A stretch of 64,000 nt of DNA from Ectothiorhodospiraceae bacterium (GTDB lineage: Bacteria; Pseudomonadota; Gammaproteobacteria; Nitrococcales; Aquisalimonadaceae). The stretch is from assembly GCA_007125985.1 (NCBI GenBank), contig SLCE01000051.1, positions 4,991 through 68,990 of the forward strand. The letters are read 5' to 3'. The notes under the pieces were generated by a model. That model was not told the origin of the DNA, made no database searches, and saw nothing but the letters and a program-made list of their open reading frames with translations. This document shows, in pieces, positions 5,832 to 56,276 of this stretch (its first letter is position 1; the number at the start of each line of letters is the position of its first letter). The translations under genes and the position numbers were made by a program.

Positions 5832-8165
5832 ATGGCGGCGAAGAAAAAACGGCGTTCCAGTCCCCGCGGGAAGCGAGGTCGATCCCGTACCCGGCGCCAG
5901 CCTGGTTTGCTGCGCCGTCTGTTCCTGCCTGCCGCGTTGATGGTGGTATTGGCCGGCGGCGGCTATGTTCTGTGGCTTGATCACACCGTCCGCACCCAGT
6001 TCGAAGGCAAGCGCTGGTCGGTGCCGGGCACTGTCTATGCGCGCCCGCTGGAGCTTTACGTGGGGCAACCGTTAACCCCTGCGCAATTGCAACTCGAACT
6101 CGAGGCGCTGGGGTATCGGGAGTCCCGGGATAGCCGCCGGCCAGGTACCTGGCGCCAGAGCGGGCCGGGGCTGGAAGTGTCCTCGCGACCGTTCACCTTC
6201 TGGGATGGCGTTGAGGGCCAGCAACGGTTCCGGATGACATTGTCTGATGGACAGGTCACCGCACTTCGCGGTCTGGATGGGCAGGACCTGCCCCTGGTCC
6301 GCCTGGATCCGGCGGTGATCGGTCATATCTACCCGGGACATCGGGAGGACCGCCTCCTGGTTCGGCTTGATCAGGTGCCCGCCACGCTGGTCGCCGGGAT
6401 GCTGGTGGTGGAGGACCGGGAGTTTTTCAGTCATTTCGGCGTTTCCCCCAGTTCCATCGCGCGGGCCGCTTTGGCCAACCTGCGTGCCGGCCGCGTGGTG
6501 CAGGGCGGCAGCACGATCACGCAGCAATTGGTCAAGAATTTTTATCTGAGCAGCGAGCGGAGTTATTGGCGCAAGTTCAATGAGGCCATCATGGCCGTCC
6601 TGCTGGAACTGCGCTACGACAAGGAAGCGATTCTCGAGACGTACCTGAACGAAGTCTATCTGGCGCAGGATGGGGAGCGTGCCATCCATGGGGTCGGACT
6701 CGCTGCGCAGCACCTGTTCGGGCAGGAACTGGAGCGCCTGTCGCTGGAACAGCAGGCCTTGTTGATCGCCCTGGTGCGGGGGCCATCCCACTATCACCCG
6801 AACCGCCACCCCGAACGGGCCATGACGCGGCGCAATCTGGTGCTGGACGTGATGGCGGAACAGGGGGTGATCACAGGGGAACAGGCACGTGCCGCAGCGG
6901 CGCGCCCCTTGGATGTCCTGCCCCCGCGCGGTCGCCCGCGGGAGAATTATCCCGCGTTCATGGATCTGGTACAGCGTCATCTGGAGCGGGATTACCGACG
7001 TGAGGATCTGCAAAGCGAGGGGCTGCGGATCTTTACCACACTGGCGCCAGCTATCCAGCGTGCCACCGAACGGGCCGTCGCCTCGACGCTGGCCGATAAA
7101 CCGGATGCGTTGCAGGCAGCCGCGGTCATGGTTGATGTGGATTCCGGTGAGGTCACGGCACTGGTGGGGGATCGTAACCCACGCTATGCCGGCTTCAATC
7201 GCGCGCTGGATGCGCGCAGGCCGGTGGGTTCGCTGATCAAGCCGGCGGTGTATCTCGCGGCGCTGGATCAGCCGTCACGCTGGGGGCTGGGCAGCCTGTT
7301 GGAGGATGTCCCGCTCAGCCTGACAGATGAACGTGGACGTCCTTGGGAGCCGCGGAATTTTGACCGGGAGTTTCGCGGCCAGGTACTGCTGGTGGACGCG
7401 CTAGCCCATTCCTACAATATCCCCACCATCCGCTTGGGCCAGGAGCTGGGCCTAGGCACCGTAGGCCGCACGGTAGAGCGACTGGGGGCGCCGACACCGC
7501 GGACCCTGTATCCATCCTTTCTGATCGGCACCGGTGAACTGAGCCCGGTGCAGGTGGCGCAAATGTATCAGACGCTGGCGTCCGGCGGCTACCGCACACC
7601 GTTGCGCTCGGTACGGGCGGTGACCCGGCAGGACGGAACCCCGCTGAACCGATATGCACTGGCGGTGGATCGTGCTTTCGAGCCAACCAGTGTCCAACTG
7701 GTGAACCAGGCGCTGGTGCAGGCCATGCAACGCGGCACCGGCCGGTCAGCGACGACACTGCTTCCGCCCGGCCTTGTGGTGGCCGGCAAGACGGGGACAA
7801 CAGACGAGACCCGGGACAGCTGGTTTGCTGGATTCGGCGACGATGTGCTGGGTGTCGTCTGGCTGGGTCGTGATGATAACCGCCCCACCGGGTTTACCGG
7901 CTCCAGTGGGGCGCTGCCGGTGTGGGCAAGGGCGATGCGGGACATCCGGCCCCGGCCATACAAGACAACGCTGGTTGCGGGCCTTGAAGCGGTCTGGATG
8001 GACGAAGCCAGCGGACGGCGCTCCGCTGAAGGGTGCGACGGCGCGCGCCTGCTGGCGTACCAACAAGGCGCTGCTCCTGAGCAATGGACCAGCTGCGGCG
8101 AACGGTATGCCCGACGGGAAGAGCGCTCGGGTGTGGGTAACTGGATACGAGGATTGTTCCGATGA
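5832..8165 (+). CDS. mrcB: Penicillin-binding protein 1B (bifunctional glycosyltransferase/transpeptidase)
   Basis: GT51 motifs EDREFFSHFG and GGSTITQQLVKN. Transpeptidase motifs SLIKP (SxxK) and KTGTT. Basic N-terminus plus a single TM segment. Confidence 0.9.
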   Translation: MAAKKKRRSSPRGKRGRSRTRRQPGLLRRLFLPAALMVVLAGGGYVLWLDHTVRTQFEGKRWSVPGTVYARPLELYVGQPLTPAQLQLELEALGYRESRDSRRPGTWRQSGPGLEVSSRPFTFWDGVEGQQRFRMTLSDGQVTALRGLDGQDLPLVRLDPAVIGHIYPGHREDRLLVRLDQVPATLVAGMLVVEDREFFSHFGVSPSSIARAALANLRAGRVVQGGSTITQQLVKNFYLSSERSYWRKFNEAIMAVLLELRYDKEAILETYLNEVYLAQDGERAIHGVGLAAQHLFGQELERLSLEQQALLIALVRGPSHYHPNRHPERAMTRRNLVLDVMAEQGVITGEQARAAAARPLDVLPPRGRPRENYPAFMDLVQRHLERDYRREDLQSEGLRIFTTLAPAIQRATERAVASTLADKPDALQAAAVMVDVDSGEVTALVGDRNPRYAGFNRALDARRPVGSLIKPAVYLAALDQPSRWGLGSLLEDVPLSLTDERGRPWEPRNFDREFRGQVLLVDALAHSYNIPTIRLGQELGLGTVGRTVERLGAPTPRTLYPSFLIGTGELSPVQVAQMYQTLASGGYRTPLRSVRAVTRQDGTPLNRYALAVDRAFEPTSVQLVNQALVQAMQRGTGRSATTLLPPGLVVAGKTGTTDETRDSWFAGFGDDVLGVVWLGRDDNRPTGFTGSSGALPVWARAMRDIRPRPYKTTLVAGLEAVWMDEASGRRSAEGCDGARLLAYQQGAAPEQWTSCGERYARREERSGVGNWIRGLFR

Positions 8166-32806: not shown

Positions 32807-32828
32807 GACCCGGCCGCTCGGCCGGGTC
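32807..32828 (+). terminator. GC-rich hairpin after the fumarase gene (possible terminator)
   Basis: GACCCGGCC-gctc-GGCCGGGTC is a perfect 9-bp stem, followed by tgccgTTcTaTT, a weak U-tract. Confidence 0.45.
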
Positions 32829-32976
32829 TGCCGTTCTATTAACCCTCAGATCTCACCGCGATAGGAGACCGGCGGGAACAGTCTGTCATGCTGAGGTTTG
32901 CGGTCATACTCAGGTATTTCCCCTAAGTTCGGCCTTCTTGCGCGCCAGCCGATGTCCGACCGGTGAGATACGCGGG

Positions 32977-33378
32977 TTAATCGTCAATCATCCCCAGGAT
33001 TGAGTCCACGATATCGCTCATGGTGATCAGGCCCTCCAGCTCATTGTGGTGGGTCACCACGATGCGCCGGATGTCATGGGTCACCATCATGCGCGCCACG
33101 TACTTGGTATCCAGTTCGCGGGAGACCGTGATCACCGGCTTGGCGCAGACGTCGTAGACATTGAGCAGGTCAATATCACCTTCCTCGGCGACAATGGTCT
33201 GCAGGATGTTGGTGTAGGTCACCAGTCCGTAGGCGTCGTGTGGATTCTGCTTGTCCACCACCAGGCATTTCACCTTTTTTTCGCGCATCAGCGCCATGGC
33301 TTCGCGCAGCGTGGCCAGTGGTGAGACGGTCACCACGTCCTTTACCATGATGTCCTTGACCAGCATCATCATCTCCAA
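32977..33378 (-). CDS. CBS-pair domain protein
   Basis: 133 aa forming two CBS motifs (VKDIMVKDVVTVSP ... VARMMVTHDIRRIVV). Confidence 0.85.
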   Translation of the reverse strand: MEMMMLVKDIMVKDVVTVSPLATLREAMALMREKKVKCLVVDKQNPHDAYGLVTYTNILQTIVAEEGDIDLLNVYDVCAKPVITVSRELDTKYVARMMVTHDIRRIVVTHHNELEGLITMSDIVDSILGMIDD

Positions 33379-39978: not shown

Positions 39979-40959
39979 ATGCGTGCAGTGATCTGTAAGG
40001 AATACGGGCCGCCGGAAAGCCTGGTGGTTGGTGAACTGGAAACCCGCCCGGTGGGCGAGAACGACGTGCGTATCGGCGTTCACGCCTGCGGCGTCAACTT
40101 CCCGGATACCCTGATTATCCAGGGCAAGTACCAGTTCAAGCCGGAAATGCCGTTTGCGCCCGGTTCGGAAGTGGCCGGGGAGATCCTGGAAGTCGGCTCC
40201 GGCGTGAAAAACCTGAAGCCGGGTGATCGGGTGATGGCCATGGTGGGCCATGGCGGCTTTGCCGAAGAGGTGGTGATTGGCGCCGAGCGCGTCATGCCCA
40301 TGGCCGATGCTATGAGCTACGAAGTGGCCGCCGGCTTCCCGATGGTGTACGGCACGTCCTACCACGCGTTGAAACAACGCGGGCAGCTGCAACCGGGTGA
40401 GACCCTGCTGGTGCTGGGTGCCTCCGGGGGCGTGGGTCTGGCGGCAGTGGAACTGGGCAAAGCCATGGGCGCCCGGGTGATTGCCGCTGCCAGCTCCGAT
40501 GAAAAGCTCCAGCTGGCAAAGGAGCACGGTGCCGACGACGTGGTGAATTACTCTGAAGGCAGCCTCAAGGAGAAGGTCAAGGAGCTGACCGATGGTAAGG
40601 GCGCCGACGTGATCTACGACCCGGTGGGCGGCGACTACTTCGACGAATGTCTGCGCTGCATCAACTGGAACGGCCGCCTGCTGGTGGTGGGCTTTGCCAG
40701 CGGCCGTATTCCCAAGGCTCCGGCCAACCTGCCGCTGCTCAAGGGTTCCAGCATTGTTGGTGTGTTCTGGGGGGATTTCGTTCGCCGTCAGCCCAAGGAC
40801 AACACGCAGAACTTCATGGAGCTGTTCGGTTTCCTGAAGGAAGGCAAGATCCGGCCGCACGTCTCCGCCACATTCAGCCTGGATGACGCCCCGCAGGCCT
40901 TGAACCATCTTGTCAGCCGCAAGGCCACCGGCAAGGTGGTGGTGAAAGTCCGTGATTAA
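39979..40959 (+). CDS. NADPH:quinone oxidoreductase-like MDR protein
   Basis: GVNFPD, PGSEVAGE and GASGGVGLAAVELGK motifs. GGAGGA RBS. Confidence 0.85.
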   Translation: MRAVICKEYGPPESLVVGELETRPVGENDVRIGVHACGVNFPDTLIIQGKYQFKPEMPFAPGSEVAGEILEVGSGVKNLKPGDRVMAMVGHGGFAEEVVIGAERVMPMADAMSYEVAAGFPMVYGTSYHALKQRGQLQPGETLLVLGASGGVGLAAVELGKAMGARVIAAASSDEKLQLAKEHGADDVVNYSEGSLKEKVKELTDGKGADVIYDPVGGDYFDECLRCINWNGRLLVVGFASGRIPKAPANLPLLKGSSIVGVFWGDFVRRQPKDNTQNFMELFGFLKEGKIRPHVSATFSLDDAPQALNHLVSRKATGKVVVKVRD

Positions 40960-41034: not shown

Positions 41035-41072
41035 CCTTAAGGAAGCGCGGATTTATTCCCATGCCGCTTCGC
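41035..41072 (-). repeat. Dispersed intergenic repeat, copy C (reverse orientation)
   Basis: The reverse complement, GCGAAGCGGCATGGGAATAAATCCGCGCTTCCTTAAGG, aligns with copies at 44298, 50903 and 56110. Confidence 0.8.
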
Positions 41073-41101
41073 TAATCGCCGGAAATCATCGCCACAATGG
41101 C

Positions 41102-43566: not shown

Positions 43567-44274
43567 ATGCGACGTCGATCCTTTGTGAAAGTGTGCGCCT
43601 TGGGGGCCGGCGCGATGGCGGCGGGCCCTGGCCTCCTGTTTTCCAGTGACCTGGTGCGCAGGGAGTATTCCAGAGTTCGACTGGTGGACTTCCACGGCCA
43701 GCCGCTGCGGCCGGCCGAACTGAGCCCGCAGCGGCACTATGTGTTCAATTATCCCTACCTGGCAACACCTTGTTTTCTGCTCAATCTGAATCGCCCCGTG
43801 CCCGGGCTCAACGGCCTGAGCACGGAACAGGGTGATCGGTACGCTTGGCAGGGTGGGGTGGGGCCGCAACGATCGCTGGTGGCCTATTCGGCGATCTGTG
43901 CCCACAAGATGGCGCATCCCACCACCGCAGTCAGTTACATCAGTTTCCGCCAGCCGCGCAATGGGGATGACCCGGAAACCGGTGTGATCAGTTGCTGCGC
44001 CGAGAACAGCGTGTACGATCCTTTCCGCGGCGGAAGAGTTATTTCCGGCCCAGCGCCTCAGCCGTTGGCCGCCATCGTGCTGGAATACGATGCTGAAAAT
44101 GACGCCCTGTACGCACAGGGCACGCTGGGCGGCGAGATGTTTCGCCGTTTCTTCAGTGAATTTGAGGCACGCCTGTCCCTGGAGTATCCCGACGGTGATG
44201 CGGCGCGGCCGCTGGAAGGCGATGTGGAAGTGATACCTCTTGAACGGTACAGCGCGAATATCATGCAGTGCTGA
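43567..44274 (+). CDS. TAT-exported Rieske-fold-like protein with atypical cluster motifs
   Basis: Twin-arginine signal MRRRSFVKVCALGAGAMAA. Box-1-like ICAHKMAHP and box-2-like SCCAENSVYDP, in an arrangement like the arsenite oxidase small subunit. Confidence 0.6.
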   Translation: MRRRSFVKVCALGAGAMAAGPGLLFSSDLVRREYSRVRLVDFHGQPLRPAELSPQRHYVFNYPYLATPCFLLNLNRPVPGLNGLSTEQGDRYAWQGGVGPQRSLVAYSAICAHKMAHPTTAVSYISFRQPRNGDDPETGVISCCAENSVYDPFRGGRVISGPAPQPLAAIVLEYDAENDALYAQGTLGGEMFRRFFSEFEARLSLEYPDGDAARPLEGDVEVIPLERYSANIMQC

Positions 44275-44297
44275 CCGCCGCCTGTTCAGCGCACGCG

Positions 44298-44342
44298 AAT
44301 GGCTCCGCAGAGCATCATGGGAATAAATCAGTGTTTCCTTAG
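44298..44342 (+). repeat. Dispersed intergenic repeat, copy A
   Basis: AATGGCTCCGCAGAGCATCATGGGAATAAATCAGTGTTTCCTTAG, in the convergent gap between the Rieske-like and ankyrin genes. Confidence 0.85.
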
Positions 44343-44360
44343 GCTTTGGTGGGAAGAACT

Positions 44361-46322: not shown

Positions 46323-47720
46323 TCAGTCTGATTCCCAGAGCTTGACCTTGCGCTCCAGCGTCTTCCGGGATACGCCCAGTCGGCGCGCGGCCTCCGATTT
46401 GTTTCCCCCGGCCGCTGCCAGTACCCGTAAGGCGTGGCGCTTTTCCACCTCGTCCAGCGGCATATCCAGCGGATAACCGGTCTCACTGCGGGCGTTGCCC
46501 AGAGTGATCGGTGCGTCCACATGGTCGACTTCCAGGCATTGGGTCGGGGAATAGCCCAACAGCATCGCGCGTTCGATCACGTTCTTCAACTCACGCACGT
46601 TGCCCGGCCAGGCATGGGATTGAAGGCGGCGGAGTTCCGCCGAATCCAGCTCCACCGGGGGGAGGCCGAGCTCCTTCGATAGCATGTCGCTGAACAGGCG
46701 CACGAGCTGCGGGATATCGGCAGGCCGTTCCCTTAGCGGCGGCAGGCGCAGCGAGAGCACGTTGAGCCGGAAATAGAGATCTTCCCGAAACCGTCCGGCG
46801 GCAACCTCGTCGGCAAGGCGGCGGTTGGTGGCGGCGACAATGCGGACGTCCACCGGTAGTTCCCGTTCCGTCCCCACCGGCCGGATGGTGTGGTCCTCCA
46901 GTACCCGCAGCAGCTTGGCCTGGAACGGTAACGGCATCTCGCCGATTTCGTCCAGAAATAGCGTGCCGCCGTCCGCATGGCTGAAAAGCCCCTCCCTGGA
47001 TTGGTTTGCGCCGGTAAACGCGCCCCGTACATGGCCGAACAATTCGCTTTCCAGCAACTCCGGCGCGATGGAGCTGCAATTCACGGGCACGAAGGGGCCG
47101 TTGCGCCCGCTGTAAAAGTGCAGGCAGCGGGCTGCGACCTCCTTGCCGGTACCCGATTCGCCCTCCAGTAACACGGTACTATTACGGCAGGCCACGCGTC
47201 GGATCAGGGTGAGCAACCCGCGCATGGCCTCGCTGCGGCCCACGATGCCCTCCAACTCGGGCGGGACCGGGCCTGGTGAGACGGGTGGTGTGTGCTCTTC
47301 ATTGCGTAGCAAACCGTTCACCGCGTCGAGCAGGGCATCCACCGCAAATGGAGTGGTGAGGCACTGGGTCCGGGCCACCTCGGAGAGCCCCTGGCAATCG
47401 TCCCGGTGCGGGGTGATGAGCAATGCCGCCTGGCACTGGCCCTGGCGCCGCAGGCGTTTCACCCAATGCAGACCGGAGCAGTCCGGTAACTGCGCATCCA
47501 CCAGCAGCAGATCGAACCGGCAGCCGGAAAGCAGGGCCTCTGCCGCTGTGGCGGTATCCGCCTCTTCAATGAGCTGGCAATGCTCGGCCAGAGCGTCCCG
47601 CAGCAACTGCCGCATACGTGGATCATGATGAACCACCAAGGCTGCAATGGAGCGCAGGGCTGGGCCCCTGTGGCTGTCACGGAAGGTATGATCGGCAGAG
47701 GTGGGCATGTCGGACAACAA
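46323..47720 (-). CDS. Sigma54-dependent response regulator (NtrC family)
   Basis: Receiver domain (DLLLVDAQLPD), AAA+ domain with GESGTGKE and the GAFTGA motif, and a C-terminal Fis-type HTH. No sensor kinase is adjacent. Confidence 0.9.
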   Translation of the reverse strand: MLSDMPTSADHTFRDSHRGPALRSIAALVVHHDPRMRQLLRDALAEHCQLIEEADTATAAEALLSGCRFDLLLVDAQLPDCSGLHWVKRLRRQGQCQAALLITPHRDDCQGLSEVARTQCLTTPFAVDALLDAVNGLLRNEEHTPPVSPGPVPPELEGIVGRSEAMRGLLTLIRRVACRNSTVLLEGESGTGKEVAARCLHFYSGRNGPFVPVNCSSIAPELLESELFGHVRGAFTGANQSREGLFSHADGGTLFLDEIGEMPLPFQAKLLRVLEDHTIRPVGTERELPVDVRIVAATNRRLADEVAAGRFREDLYFRLNVLSLRLPPLRERPADIPQLVRLFSDMLSKELGLPPVELDSAELRRLQSHAWPGNVRELKNVIERAMLLGYSPTQCLEVDHVDAPITLGNARSETGYPLDMPLDEVEKRHALRVLAAAGGNKSEAARRLGVSRKTLERKVKLWESD

Positions 47721-47913: not shown

Positions 47914-48528
47914 ATGGCGAAAGTGACCGGTCTGGTACTGGCTGGCGGGCGTGCAACCCGCATGGGTGGACAGGACAAAGGGCTGGTGGAACTGTGTGGC
48001 AAACCCATGGTGCTCCATGTGATGGAACGCCTGAGCCCGCAAGTGGAGCACCTGGTGATCAATGCCAACCGAAACCTGGACCGGTACCGTCAGTACCGAG
48101 CCCCTGTGGTTAGCGACGCGTTTGGTGACTTTGCCGGACCGTTGGCAGGAATGGCCGCGGGGATGGCGGTTGCTGAATCTGAACTGATCTGTACGGTGCC
48201 CTGTGATTCCCCCCTGGTGCCAGCCGATCTGGTGCAGCGTTTGTATCGTGCCTGGAGCGAATCTGCCAATGGCATCGCGGTCGCCTGGGCTCACGGTCGC
48301 CTGCAGCCTGTGTTCGCTCTCATTCCCGTCGCATTGCTGGATGACCTGCAGGCGGCGCTTGTGGCGGGGGAGCGCAAGATTGACCGCTGGTATAGACGCC
48401 ACCCCATGGTGGAAGTGGATTTCTCCGATCAGCCGGACACGTTTCTCAATGTCAACACACCTGCAGAACGGGACGCGCTGGAACAGCGACTTGTCCGGGA
48501 CTCCGACGGAGCAGGGGGGCTGGCATGA
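47914..48528 (+). CDS. mobA: Molybdenum cofactor guanylyltransferase MobA
   Basis: LVLAGGRATRMGGQDKGL N-terminal motif. 204 aa. Confidence 0.9.
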   Translation: MAKVTGLVLAGGRATRMGGQDKGLVELCGKPMVLHVMERLSPQVEHLVINANRNLDRYRQYRAPVVSDAFGDFAGPLAGMAAGMAVAESELICTVPCDSPLVPADLVQRLYRAWSESANGIAVAWAHGRLQPVFALIPVALLDDLQAALVAGERKIDRWYRRHPMVEVDFSDQPDTFLNVNTPAERDALEQRLVRDSDGAGGLA

Positions 48529-50891
48529 ATCTGCTGCAGGAACGGCTGCGCTCGCAACACGCTGCCTATGGTGACTGGCTGGCCCAGCGTCATGTCGCTG
48601 ACCGAGAATTGCAACGGCTGCTGAACCGCCATGCGGCACGGCGCGCGGCACCACTGGTTCTGACCGGGAGTGTGGACGGGCGCCTGTCTGCGGCTGTGAG
48701 TCATTGGCTTGCCCGATACGGCGACAATCACGGCGATGTTCCTGTGTTCCGCTATCACTTCGGCAGCAGCCGGGATGCCCGTCGGTCCGGTCAGGTGGTC
48801 AACCAATTGCTGCATTGGCTTCAGGAGCAGGCCGGCCTCCGGGAGCCGGTGCCAGCTGCCCCTGCGACTGCGCAGGAGGTACTACCCAACTGGCTCGCGC
48901 GGGCGGCGGCGTCACGATCGTTGGTATTGATGCTCGATGGAGTGGACAGCCAGGAGGGCCTGAGCGATGACAGTGGTCCAGCCTGGTTGCCCGCCTTTCT
49001 GCCGGAGTCCGTGCGTCTGGTGATGACCATGCGCCCCGGGCCCGAGGCGGAGGCGCTGAGGCAGCGTGGCTGGGAAATCTACCCGGTGGATGACAGCAGC
49101 ACATCCACAGTTGGGGATATGCTGGCGCAGTTGCCGGTGGGGCAGGCAGATGCCGTCTGCGCCCTGTGGGCCGCGCGGCACGGGCTGGAGCGGGACGTGG
49201 TACGGGGCCTGGGGTTCGATGACGCGGTGCCGGATGGGCTCACGTATCCGTGGGGCAATCATCTGTGCCTGGCCGGTGCAGAGGTGCAGGATGCCGCAGC
49301 CCGGAGGCTGATGCCGGATGGGATGGACCGGCAGGCCTGGCACGCACTGCTGGCACGTGGGCTGGAAGGCCGGCCAGAGGATCCGGTGCTGCTGGCCGAG
49401 CGCCTGTGGCATCTTGTGGCGGCGGCGGACTGGAGTTCCCTGGCGGCGCTGCTGACCGACCCGGCCGCGTTGCGCATCCTGCTGGCGCCGGAATGGCGGT
49501 ATGAGCTCCTGGAGGCCTGGGCTGCCTGGGGAGCGGATGAGGCGCGGGTGCACTATTACCTGGAAGCCGTTCAGGGTTGGGCGCCGCGTGAGGTCACGGA
49601 TGGGCCGGAACTGATCCTGAGTCTGACCGAGGCGTTCCGTGAACTTCAGCTGGACCAGGCGCTGGAGCCGCTGTTTCAGCATGCGATCAACCGGGAGCCG
49701 GGGGCTGAGGTGGGGTCGGCGTATGGTGGGTGGTTGATGGATCAAGGGCGGGCGCCGGAGGCGGAACCGCTGCTACGCCAGACGCTGGATGTGCTGGGAG
49801 GTCCCGCCGGCGATGCGGTCGAACTGCGGGCCGCCCGCCACCGGCTGGCCATGGTTCTGGAGCAGCAGGATCGACTGGACGAGGCGGAAGCCCTCTACCT
49901 GCTCGCGTTGAAGGAGCGCGAAGCCGCGCTGGGTCAACAGCATGTGGGGCTTCTGCCGCACCTGAACAATCTCGCTGCGGTGAGGAAGGCGCGGGATGAT
50001 TATACGGGTGCGCGCGGGCTGTATCAGCGTGCGCTGAGCCTGGCCGAGCGCCATTACGGACAGCGGCACCCCACCACGGCGGCCTGCCTCGACAACCTGG
50101 CCGGCCTGCTCTACGCCGGACAGGATCTGGAAGCGGCGGAGGATCTCTATCAACGGGCGCTGGGTGTCGCGGAAGCGGCGTTCGGGCCGTCACATCCTGC
50201 CACCGCTGCCTCGGCCCACAACCTGGCCACGGTGATGGATGCCCGGGAGCAGTTCCAGGCAGCGGAGAGTCTGTTCCGCCGCGCGGTACAAATCCGGGAA
50301 CTGGCGCTGGGAGCTGAACACATGGATACCGCTTCCAGCCTGCACAATCTGGCCGGGGTTCTGGATGCCATGGGGCGCTACGACGAGGCGGAACCGCTGT
50401 ACCGCAGGGCGCTGGAGACCTGGGAGGCATTGGTGGGGCGTGAACATCCCGCGACTGCCACCACGGTGAACAATCTGGCCGATCTATTGCGTGAAACGCG
50501 CCAGTGGAATGAGGCGGAGGCCTTGTACCGGCGCAACCTCAAAACCTGGTCGGAATTGCTAGGTGAATCCCATCCGCATGTGATCATGACGCGGGCGGAG
50601 CTGGCAGGTCTGTATGCGGACAAGGCAGATCAGGGACGCGCCGAACCCTTGCTGCGTCAGGCATTGCAGGAGACGCTGGAAGTGATGGGTGGAGCGCATC
50701 CACAGCACGTCGCCTGCGTGACCCGGTTGGCGGCATTGCTCAGGGACAGCGGACGTCGGACAGAAGCCCGCGACCTGCTGCGGCAGGCCATCGACAGGGC
50801 CGAGGGCACACTGGGGATGCTATCACCGCTGGTGCAGAAGCTGCGCAAGCATCTTGACGCGCTGCAGCTTGACGGGAACCGCTTACACTGA
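48525..50891 (+). CDS. NACHT-like STAND-domain protein with degenerate P-loop and about eight kinesin-light-chain-type TPRs
   Basis: The Walker A position reads LVLTGSVDGRLS (no GK[ST]). Walker B-like LVLMLDGVDS and VRLVMTMRP. C-terminal 42-aa repeats (..LNNLA..L......Y.EAE.LY.RAL...E...G..HP.TA). ATG overlaps the mobA stop. Confidence 0.75.
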   Translation: MNLLQERLRSQHAAYGDWLAQRHVADRELQRLLNRHAARRAAPLVLTGSVDGRLSAAVSHWLARYGDNHGDVPVFRYHFGSSRDARRSGQVVNQLLHWLQEQAGLREPVPAAPATAQEVLPNWLARAAASRSLVLMLDGVDSQEGLSDDSGPAWLPAFLPESVRLVMTMRPGPEAEALRQRGWEIYPVDDSSTSTVGDMLAQLPVGQADAVCALWAARHGLERDVVRGLGFDDAVPDGLTYPWGNHLCLAGAEVQDAAARRLMPDGMDRQAWHALLARGLEGRPEDPVLLAERLWHLVAAADWSSLAALLTDPAALRILLAPEWRYELLEAWAAWGADEARVHYYLEAVQGWAPREVTDGPELILSLTEAFRELQLDQALEPLFQHAINREPGAEVGSAYGGWLMDQGRAPEAEPLLRQTLDVLGGPAGDAVELRAARHRLAMVLEQQDRLDEAEALYLLALKEREAALGQQHVGLLPHLNNLAAVRKARDDYTGARGLYQRALSLAERHYGQRHPTTAACLDNLAGLLYAGQDLEAAEDLYQRALGVAEAAFGPSHPATAASAHNLATVMDAREQFQAAESLFRRAVQIRELALGAEHMDTASSLHNLAGVLDAMGRYDEAEPLYRRALETWEALVGREHPATATTVNNLADLLRETRQWNEAEALYRRNLKTWSELLGESHPHVIMTRAELAGLYADKADQGRAEPLLRQALQETLEVMGGAHPQHVACVTRLAALLRDSGRRTEARDLLRQAIDRAEGTLGMLSPLVQKLRKHLDALQLDGNRLH

Positions 50892-50902
50892 GATTGAGCG
50901 CC

Positions 50903-50946
50903 AATGGCTCGCAGAGCACCATGGTAATGGATCAGCGCTTCCCTAA
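50903..50946 (+). repeat. Dispersed intergenic repeat, copy D
   Basis: AATGGCTCGCAGAGCACCATGGTAATGGATCAGCGCTTCCCTAA fills the convergent gap between the TPR gene and the YqeC-like gene and overlaps the latter's stop codon. Confidence 0.85.
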
Positions 50947-51695
50947 CGTAAGATCACATCCACCAACAGATCAGGTTCCCGGTTGCTCAGCAGCACCACC
51001 CGGTCATAGCGGTCGGATTCCCGCAGGATGCGTGCAGCCACCTCCCGTCCCAGGCTCCGCTGTTCCGGCTCGTCCGCCATGTTCAGTACCGGAACCAAAT
51101 GATGGTCGACGGTGCCTTGCTGCAGGCCCTCCGGGTGGGTATAGAGTGCGCTCATGGTTGCGGCCGTGATCGGGCTGCCCTCGCGCTGGCCGGTCACCCG
51201 AAGCACGCGCTCGAGGCGATGAGCGACACGATCAGTCAGGGCCTCGCCAATGGCCAGCAACGAGCTCACCACCAGCACGATGTTGGCGAACTCCGGAATG
51301 AAGGGCTCATGGGCGCCGGGCACCTTGATGCGACGCATGCGCGCGCCGTCCGCCTTGATCAGGCTGAGATCAAAAGCCCCCTGGCGGTGCAGTTCCAGGA
51401 TCTGTTCGGCCGGTGGGCCGGCCAGCCGTCCGGGTTTGTCGGCGGGGCAGGCATACAGCAGCGGGGCAGCCGATTGCGGCGTGATGCGGTGGCGCAAGGT
51501 GGAGGCATCCGCAACCAGCACATGGGCTTTCAGGCCCCGGGGCGGTTGATATGTGAAGACTGAAGCCGTCATGGCCGCGCGGCCTGGATGCCGTTCCAGC
51601 AGGCCGTATAGAGTGCTCTTTTTGCCACCGGCGCCGATGGCGCACACCAGTCCCCGTTCCGCTTTCAGCGCCTGGAACAACGCCGTGGCGCTCAT
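50943..51695 (-). CDS. YqeC-like accessory NTPase (selenium-dependent Mo-hydroxylase maturation family)
   Basis: MSATALFQAL...CAIGAGGKKSTL P-loop-like motif and LIKADGARMRRIKVPGAHEPFIP. ATG overlaps the stop of the upstream propeller gene (ATGA). The N-terminal 72 aa of the track ORF were trimmed. Confidence 0.75.
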   Translation of the reverse strand: MSATALFQALKAERGLVCAIGAGGKKSTLYGLLERHPGRAAMTASVFTYQPPRGLKAHVLVADASTLRHRITPQSAAPLLYACPADKPGRLAGPPAEQILELHRQGAFDLSLIKADGARMRRIKVPGAHEPFIPEFANIVLVVSSLLAIGEALTDRVAHRLERVLRVTGQREGSPITAATMSALYTHPEGLQQGTVDHHLVPVLNMADEPEQRSLGREVAARILRESDRYDRVVLLSNREPDLLVDVILR

Positions 51696-52804
51696 ACAGC
51701 CGTATCCGTCCACGCGGCCACGCTCAGGATGCGGGGGAGGAATTCGGCAATGCACTGCCAGCGGGCACCGTGGTCGGCGGAGGCGAACAGGTGGCCGCTG
51801 GAGGTGCCAAAGTAGGCTCCGCAAGGTTGCAGCTGATCCAGGCAAAGCGCTTCCCGCAGCACCGTCACATACGCGTGATGCTGGGGCAGCCCGCCGGACC
51901 TGCTTTCCCAACTGCGTCCGCCGTCCGCGGAACGGAAGACCCGTAATCGGCCGCCCGGGGCGGTGCGTAGGTGGTTGCTGTCAATGGGGATCACCCACAC
52001 CGTGTCCGGATCCGCATGCTCGGTGGCCAGGGCGTAGCCGAAGTCGCTGGGGAGTCCGTCGGTGATTTCCGTCCAGGTTTCGCCGCCATTGTTGCTCCGG
52101 TACACGCCGTTGTAGCACTGGCGATAGAGCCGATCCGGATCCAGCGGATGGGCAAGTAGCCGGTGGACATTGTGCCCACTGCGTGCGTGCCCACCCGGCA
52201 GGTGCTCTGCTCTTACGCCCCGGTTGATCGGCCGCCAGTGTGCACCGTGGTCATCGCTGCGGTAGACACCACCGGCGGAAACTGCCGCATACAGCCGCGC
52301 CGGGTCCAGCGGACACTGATGAATGGAGTGCAGGGAGAAGCCACCCTTGGCCGGCTCCCAGGTGTCGCGGCTCGGATGAGTATTTAATGCGTCCATCGGC
52401 GACCATCCACAGGCCCCGTCACGGCTGATGAACAGTCCGGCCGGGTCAATACCCGCATACAGGGTGCGGGGCTCAGAGGCGAGACCGGGTGCCAGATGCC
52501 AGATAGCCTTCAGACGGCTTCCCTGAAAATCTGACGGGTGGGTCGGAACGGCCTCCAGGGGATCCCAGCTGCGTCCGTAGTCCGTGGTGCGATAAAGGTG
52601 TGCCCCCCAGATCTCATGGTGGGTGGCCGCGTATCCCAGCCCGGGCGCCCGCGGATCAAGCCAGGCATGCAGCACCTCGTAACCCGCGATCAGCGGGCCC
52701 TGCATATGCCAATCCCGGCGTTGCCCGTCGCTGTGCAGGCGAAACAACCCTTTCTGTGTGCCGACCAGGAGGATCACCTGGGCGGGACGTTCCGATGAGG
52801 GCAT
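51692..52804 (-). CDS. Cytoplasmic Asp-box (BNR) beta-propeller protein
   Basis: Six Asp-box motifs (TTDYGRSW, SRDGACGW, SDDHGAHW, SNNGGETW, SADGGRSW, SADHGARW) and no signal peptide. The 5' part of the 651-aa track ORF is antisense to the JAMM and Ubl genes and was trimmed. Confidence 0.8.
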   Translation of the reverse strand: MPSSERPAQVILLVGTQKGLFRLHSDGQRRDWHMQGPLIAGYEVLHAWLDPRAPGLGYAATHHEIWGAHLYRTTDYGRSWDPLEAVPTHPSDFQGSRLKAIWHLAPGLASEPRTLYAGIDPAGLFISRDGACGWSPMDALNTHPSRDTWEPAKGGFSLHSIHQCPLDPARLYAAVSAGGVYRSDDHGAHWRPINRGVRAEHLPGGHARSGHNVHRLLAHPLDPDRLYRQCYNGVYRSNNGGETWTEITDGLPSDFGYALATEHADPDTVWVIPIDSNHLRTAPGGRLRVFRSADGGRSWESRSGGLPQHHAYVTVLREALCLDQLQPCGAYFGTSSGHLFASADHGARWQCIAEFLPRILSVAAWTDTAV

Positions 52805-52868: not shown

Positions 52869-52883
52869 AGGGAAGCGCTGATC
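52869..52883 (-). repeat. Half copy (right arm) of the dispersed repeat, copy E
   Basis: The reverse complement, GATCAGCGCTTCCCT, is identical to 15 nt of copy D. It lies in the divergent propeller / JAMM promoter region. Confidence 0.45.
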
Positions 52884-52905
52884 TTGTGCCAGGGAATACG
52901 ATAGA

Positions 52906-56049: not shown

Positions 56050-56109
56050 CTGCAGTTTGACGCATGAGCACGCGCCGGGTCAGACCCTGTTACGCGTCCT
56101 GCCCCAAAG

Positions 56110-56144
56110 CCGGAGCACCATGGGAATAGATCAGTGCTTCCCCA
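56110..56144 (+). repeat. Dispersed intergenic repeat, copy B
   Basis: CCGGAGCACCATGGGAATAGATCAGTGCTTCCCCA, about 150 nt upstream of the sigma54-like promoter. Confidence 0.85.
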
Positions 56145-56276
56145 GAAATATGGTGCAGCGTGTCATGGTGCATTTTGTCTCAGTGTTACCCGCGGCGGTC
56201 GCTTTTGACCCAGTGTCACGCACTCCTGACAACGGCGCGGACACGCCACAGGTAGCAATATGCTGCATCTATCTAC

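Follow-up and report, generated by a model that had tools for sequence, protein, structure and literature searches.

IS5 of Escherichia coli carries terminal repeats of 16 bp. The published target of this insertion sequence (IS) is the tetranucleotide YTAR (PMC5009759), and terminal inverted repeats (TIRs) matching IS5-family elements are also found on several non-coding, multicopy elements, namely BrickBuilt, MITE293 and MITE700 of Porphyromonas gingivalis and ATR of Neisseria (PMC4596501). Such elements need not be complete, both TIRs being kept in 4 of the 19 copies of BrickBuilt (PMC4596501). The REP/BIME and ERIC/IRU elements of the enterobacteria, which are short, abundant, intergenic and partly palindromic, form a second point of comparison. 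The repeat described here shares general properties with both kinds of element. Very probably it is the TIR of a 263-bp MITE derived from an IS5-group insertion sequence, and the copies from which it was recognized are the leftovers of that MITE.

The window, by which we mean the whole 64-kb stretch of DNA that was analysed (G000:C58:4991-68990), belongs to a 3.24-Mb assembly of 248 contigs with 63% GC. The preliminary description reported four full copies of a short repeat, at 44298-44342 (+; copy A), 50903-50946 (+; copy D), 56110-56144 (+; copy B) and 41035-41072 (-; copy C). A direct reading of the window confirms these positions and the accuracy of the accompanying alignment, together with a half copy (E) at 52869-52883 (-) that is identical to copy D over 15 nt. 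The abundance of the motif in the window is far above chance expectation: a 29-nt degenerate pattern taken from three copies gives 3 matches when up to 3 mismatches are allowed and none in 100 shuffles that preserve dinucleotides. A repeat search of the window recovers the family (D1, I8, I12). The size first given, 35-45 nt, needs revision, for although the repeat is present its copies are not units of that length and extend further inward, copy D to about 50899 and copy B to about 56098. Copy A reaches 44273, where it touches a stop codon, and its 69 nt correspond to MITE positions 202-270. The final four bases of each copy (TTAG, CTAA, CCAG and TTAA) are target-site sequence and lie outside the element.

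Copies A, C and D do lie in convergent gaps, and B and E in divergent ones, as originally described. Copy A is flanked by an ORF and an ankyrin gene; the ORF was first called Rieske-like but has no Pfam match. The other convergent gaps are formed by a + strand ORF (39979-40959) and SufE for copy C, and by a long + strand ORF (48525-50891) and a YqeC-like gene for copy D. Copy B separates MoaA from a DUF3305 gene, and copy E a BNR-propeller gene from a Prok-JAB gene.

The repeat is not confined to the window. The preliminary description had considered both a genome-wide element and a local duplication, and the former is correct: a profile of the 36-nt core detects 128 copies at E<0.01 in the 3.24-Mb genome, 63 on the + strand and 65 on the - strand, distributed across the 248 contigs, and further copies occur in relatives. 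The outer edge is sharp in all of them, GTGCTTCC being followed at once by a tetranucleotide, which is TTAA in 30 copies, CTAG in 25, CTAA in 14 and TTAG in 8, so that 77 of the 128 (60%) are flanked by YTAR. Conservation within the core is highest over the terminal 22 nt, as would be expected of a protein-binding end. On the inner side the copies run on into either of two conserved arms, T1 or T2, although some fold straight back into GGAAGCAC instead.

The genomic context was assessed with gene calls from a crude GC3-based caller. On this basis 118 of the 128 copies are intergenic, as against about 14% intergenic DNA, and the tandem, divergent and convergent gaps hold 52, 32 and 25 copies, respectively, where they contribute 55, 26 and 19% of the intergenic length. 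The flanking tetranucleotide falls on a predicted stop codon at 32 of the 128 ends, compared with 21% of the YTAR sites outside gene interiors. As YTAR contains TAA or TAG, copies come to lie just 3' of genes, and such a target, together with selection against insertion into genes, accounts for a position that is intergenic and often adjacent to a stop codon. This explains why the repeats hug stop codons.

The motif seen in the window is the outer ~33 nt of the TIR of a palindromic, non-coding MITE. Among cores that lie close together the outward-facing (-,+) orientation dominates, and five of the pairs, with spans of 264-272 nt, are full copies of 271 nt (263 plus twice 4) that align from end to end. 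The body of the element is 263 nt, with TIRs of ~33 nt that start GGAAGCACTGATCTATTCCCATGG. Thirteen further two-ended copies are shorter through internal deletions, and two-ended copies are always outward-facing. The tetranucleotides on the two sides are identical in 10 of these 18 copies. Permutation gives 3.07 on average and, in 10,000 trials, never as many as 10. Among the matching pairs are TAAA/TAAA and TTCA/TTCA, which are not palindromic and so cannot belong to the inverted repeat. With TIRs around a short non-coding body and a target-site duplication, the element is a bacterial MITE. Folded as single-stranded DNA, a full copy has a free energy of -108 kcal/mol (z = -12). A search of a plasmid collection with the MITE gave no match.

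Aligned with the full-length element, the copies in the window appear to be truncated relics, four of them stumps with a single end (A, B, D and E) and one a 31-nt mini (C). Their positions are collected in Table 1, with those of the hairpin modules described below.

Table 1. Positions of the repeat copies in the window and of hairpin modules in elements outside it
Feature	Coordinates	Strand	Basis or remark
Copy A, one-ended relic, right (T1) arm	44273..44338	+	consensus positions ~202-267
TTAG target tetranucleotide beside copy A	44339..44342	.	sharp outer edge in all copies, ...TTCC followed by YTAR
Copy C, 31-nt mini, ~8 nt of one tip and the other terminus entire	41041..41071	-	core profile E 3.2e-08
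Copy D, one-ended T1-arm relic	50899..50942	+	consensus ~223-267 (profile 223-270), 1-nt deletion
CTAA target tetranucleotide of copy D	50943..50946	.	bases 1-3 form the YqeC-like gene's stop codon
Copy B, one-ended left (T2) arm relic, ~44 nt	56098..56141	+	T2 extent 48 including flank
Copy E, terminal scrap, ~14-20 nt	52871..52890	+	core profile E 3.2; 15-nt identity with copy D
Hairpin modules in a full-length MITE copy (example)	L003:129-232 and L003:237-342	+ and -	alignment A1, model R1
Module-bearing MITEs with other termini	L162-L172 (G011, G013, G015); L176 (G105); L175/L178/L184 (G159, G150, G210); L179 (G169); L182 (G093)		

A full-length profile (nhmmer) matches copy A over 44273-44341, equivalent to positions 202-270, with an E-value of 1.6e-16 and no second end, and the inner break lies directly beside the stop codon with which the upstream ORF (43567-44274) ends. 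Copy D sits against the YqeC-like gene (50943-51911), whose stop codon, TAG on the - strand, is inside the CTAA of this copy. The flank of copy B is a degenerate CCAG (56142-56145). Copy C is bounded by TTAA (41037-41040) and CTAA (41072-41075) and reads GAAGCG, 15 nt of former TIR interior, then CGCTTC, the same architecture as other minis in the genome. In copy E, 14 nt are identical to the tip of the TIR (GGAAGCGCTGATCT), with divergence beyond. The window also contains a separate inverted repeat (32839-32979, within 32820-33000) in the spacer between fumarase and CBS genes; blastn with it finds only itself in the genome, and it belongs neither to the MITE nor to any other dispersed family.

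The MITE has been found in all three genomes of the same genus, in 15 of the 18 genomes of the same family and also in two further families within the order, with very unequal copy numbers. Those relatives that carry an exact 23-mer are MAGs labelled Ectothiorhodospiraceae bacterium. The three congeners (G001-G003) are only 70-87% identical, and their intergenic DNA is too diverged for an exact empty site, but the orthologous gaps can be compared. Copy A is not in the orthologous gap of G001 or G003. In G002 the gap holds a two-ended MITE with a CTAG duplication, 22 nt away from the site of copy A and in the opposite orientation, which implies an independent hit on the same gap. Copy C is absent from the orthologous qor-sufE gap, and copy E from its own, in all three congeners, and the MoaA-DUF3305 gap contains no convincing counterpart of copy B in any of them. 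For copy D, the orthologous regions of G002 and G003 contain no core match, and the gap of G001 contains only a weak partial one at another place. On these sequence comparisons the copies in the window appear to be lineage-specific insertions rather than conserved signals.

Two observations arose alongside these comparisons. The G002 region orthologous to window positions 44275-44360 is divided between two contigs (G002:C113:23046-23135 and G002:C87:108687-108849; L052 and L051), the MITE insertion having split the assembly. A metagenome scan with a neighbouring gene (46323-47720, - strand) returned distant homologues only, with hits of at most 46% identity; judged by its conserved peptides and by its metagenome homologues, which number in the hundreds at 35-51% identity, this gene encodes a sigma54-type (NtrC-like) response regulator of a ubiquitous kind.

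The preliminary description had proposed that the repeat might be a small-RNA or 3'-UTR module, or a binding site for a DNA- or RNA-binding protein, and had remarked that the copies cluster around sulfur, Moco and FDH genes, which might or might not be meaningful. Applied to the MITE, this would mean that solo or mini units have been exapted, either as RNA modules (3'-UTR stabilizer, terminator or sRNA) or as sites for host regulators near those genes. Three of the window copies do lie directly 3' of genes and two in divergent promoter regions, the unit contains a weak internal inverted repeat, and a 12-bp stem can be drawn for the mini form. The window copies, however, fold no better than shuffled sequences on either strand (z from -0.76 to +0.91), and the Watson-Crick counts for the stem, 78, 85, 83 and 101, compare with 72, 84.9, 83.3 and 97.4 under independence. 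Copies A-D contain no T-run, as already remarked in the preliminary description, solo copies in co-directional gaps show no preferred orientation (18 versus 21, p=0.75), and the window has no Rfam match at the gathering threshold. Fold, covariation, orientation and Rfam evidence all speak against an RNA module. A regulon or host-protein site fares no better, as the share of each gap type tracks intergenic length and the orthologous sites of the three congeners preserve none of the five copies. Exaptation at individual loci is not supported, and we consider it very unlikely in general; the window copies most likely have no present function.

The 128 ends fall into four classes. Two-ended copies account for 33, mini-like copies, loosely defined, for 20 (of which about a dozen are unambiguous), one-ended copies with ≥45 nt of arm for 42, and one-ended copies with ≤44 nt for the remaining 33. 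The share of one-ended copies, ~59%, is high, and would result from deletion and from a detection method that favours termini. One might suppose instead that the shortest forms are still mobile, the 31-nt minis as ultra-short MITEs and the stumps by one-ended transposition. About a dozen minis do have the common architecture YTAR-GGAAGCAC-15 nt-GTGCTTCC-YTAR, with identical flanks in three, and the inner breaks of the right arm cluster at consensus positions 201-206 in nine copies. Against this, the left tip of a mini retains only 8 nt of a conserved end of ~22 nt, the flanks of most minis are unequal, and past the break points the stumps have no sequence in common. Both TIRs contain an AGCAC microhomology, and deletion from one to the other would leave precisely the junction of the minis, in which GGAAGCAC meets CATGGG.... 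Continued mobility is unlikely given the 8-nt tip and the mostly unequal flanks, and we attach still less weight to it than to exaptation. The copies in the window are probably immobile. The break cluster at 201-206 also raised the idea of a discrete 66-nt element, which was rejected as the copies share no sequence past the break; an apparent common start among G002 matches was an artefact of the query boundary.

The link with the IS5 group comes from a relic of ~300 bp elsewhere in the genome (G000:C232:4673-4960; L002:1328-1640). Here a T1 arm of ~115 nt, 85% identical, runs directly into what is left of the C-terminal part of an IS5-family transposase gene, which has one frameshift. No other IS5-type (NF033581) match occurs in the genome; the remnant is also one of two matches to PF01609 (DDE_Tnp_1), and it adjoins a core copy. 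The other is an unrelated DDE_Tnp_1 transposase within a 577-aa open frame (G000:C237:16673-17611; L001), on a contig that has no core copy. No intact partner transposase is present in the 248-contig draft, which has the 44-residue remnant only, but multicopy ISs are often lost from drafts. The fragment on C232 matches complete transposase genes in relatives. Elements of 1,210 bp occur in four copies in the complete genome of a member of the sister genus (G011) and in one copy in a congener (G001), and also in G034. They encode a 327-aa transposase that scores 339.5 bits with NF033581 (cut-off 140) and has the DUF772 and DDE_Tnp_1 (PF01609) domains. Many IS5-family relatives of this transposase were found in the plasmid collection. 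The termini of the 1,210-bp elements in G011 and G001, GGAAACGCTGATTTATTCGCC and GGAAGCGCTGATCTAATGCC, agree with the MITE tip at 18 of 24 positions, and the terminus in G034 agrees at 16 of 19. These autonomous relatives are flanked by direct repeats of CTAA, TTAG or CTAG. IS1380 was considered as an alternative YTAR-duplicating parent; the genome contains no such transposase.

It is hardly conceivable, then, that the repeat is of the REP or REPIN type, spread by a RAYT (Y1/HUH) transposase, as the preliminary term 'REP-like' would imply: it is short, intergenic, abundant and partly palindromic, and the genome encodes a single Y1_Tnp protein of IS200/RAYT type (G000:C117:103-462; L145), but no copy flanks that gene (the nearest core match on C117 is at 5999), the GTAG head is absent, the copies belong to 263-bp elements with long TIRs of ~33 nt and 4-bp duplications, where REPs are not known to make target duplications, and one MITE arm is directly contiguous with the remnant of a DDE transposase of the IS5 type.

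The origin of the repeat as the TIR of an IS5-derived MITE suggests the following course of events; we infer which transposase moves the MITE, its mobilization in trans and the mechanism of deletion from the sequences. The MITE would have arisen by internal deletion from an IS5-group insertion sequence. A DDE transposase of the IS5 type, acting in trans, would bind the outer ~22 bp of each TIR (GGAAGCACTGATCTATTCCCAT), excise the MITE and insert it at YTAR with duplication of 4 bp. The inserted copies would then decay mainly by deletion, either internal or from one side and in many cases between short repeats of the palindromic element, to give short two-ended derivatives, 31-nt minis and one-ended stumps. 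The junction of the minis is consistent with such a step between the AGCAC repeats, and forms of 89-91 nt have junctions that would correspond to the repeats GAGC and CACGCTG. The kind of element is ordinary selfish DNA. The family, with ~128 ends in 3.2 Mb, has so far had no name.

The interior of the intact elements is less ordinary. An alignment of full copies from ten genomes reveals two inverted blocks of ~50 nt that are better conserved than the surrounding arms, while the arms change between genera yet stay complementary. Each block is the centre of a hairpin of ~105 nt, so that an intact MITE carries two of these modules in inverted orientation, each with an apical region that does not vary (...GCAGGCAATGGC-n(2-4)-GCCCTTGGCAAG...). 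In 36 modules, 99.1% of the cells of the inner stem pair. Shuffling lowers this share to 88.4%, with no shuffle of 500 as high as the real modules, and sliding the partners lowers it to 33-53%. Cells with a double change number 49 where 17.4 are expected, although relatedness of sequences inflates such figures. The window contains no hairpin module. There are 25 modules in the genome, all inside copies of the present MITE family, including the relic on C232, where the module overlaps the 3' end of the transposase frame.

Of 150 families sampled across the class, 30 contain the module according to a covariance model, often with at least 26 copies and in inverted pairs. In the sister genus it belongs to another MITE family, whose termini read TGTCCTGTAACC... 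and whose flanks are CTAG. The MITEs that bear it have termini of at least five unrelated kinds, among them TGTCCTGTAACC..., GTACTCTTTCAAGG..., AGTGGTCTAACAAC... and TGGGCCAAGTGG..., and the TGTCCTG- and TGGGCC-type elements are flanked by CTAG. The pattern across families looks like that of a modular core with swapped ends. Comparison of full-length MITE copies with Rfam (E-value threshold) gave nothing relevant, and our literature search on MITEs that share a core but differ in their ends found nothing useful. We offer, as a tentative suggestion only, that the module may be an undescribed nucleic-acid element under selection, for mobilization or transposase control or for use by the host, that rides on many transposon families and has had its ends swapped around it. 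If it is functional, it would bear on how MITEs are built and mobilized.

For the window, the outcome is the removal of a false lead. A regulatory box, enhancer site, 3'-UTR module or operon-bracketing repeat need no longer be sought at these five loci, which surround the genes for SufE, SodC, Moco and FDH. The MITE family, which is found in uncultured bacteria labelled Ectothiorhodospiraceae, can now be masked in assemblies, where it causes contig breaks. The ends in the window are themselves ordinary; what deserves further attention is the conserved hairpin cargo that intact elements carry.

Among known systems, the REP elements of enterobacteria differ in having no TIR or TSD architecture and in their dependence on RAYT. 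An ERIC copy from E. coli is not matched by the covariance model of the hairpin module, and blastn with the MITE interior gives no match in 5,426 E. coli genomes. The MITEs of P. gingivalis and Neisseria resemble the present one in that most of their copies have lost one end, as here, where 33 of the 128 ends are in two-ended copies. They have no sequence similarity to it, and it differs further in its regular 4-bp YTAR duplications, in an interior made of a double hairpin instead of tandem repeats, and in its hosts, uncultured Gammaproteobacteria that resemble sulfur oxidizers and are labelled Ectothiorhodospiraceae. The comparison extends to IS5 of E. coli and the IS5 group (NF033581). The MITE differs from these in being non-coding and only 263 bp long and in having a TIR of ~33 nt, which beyond the first ~20 nt does not match the IS ends of the relatives, and its assembly has no intact partner. 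It resembles them in a tip that begins GGAAG, in a 4-bp duplication with a preference for YTAR, in one copy that is contiguous with an NF033581/PF01609 remnant, and in the matching termini of the 1,210-bp relatives.
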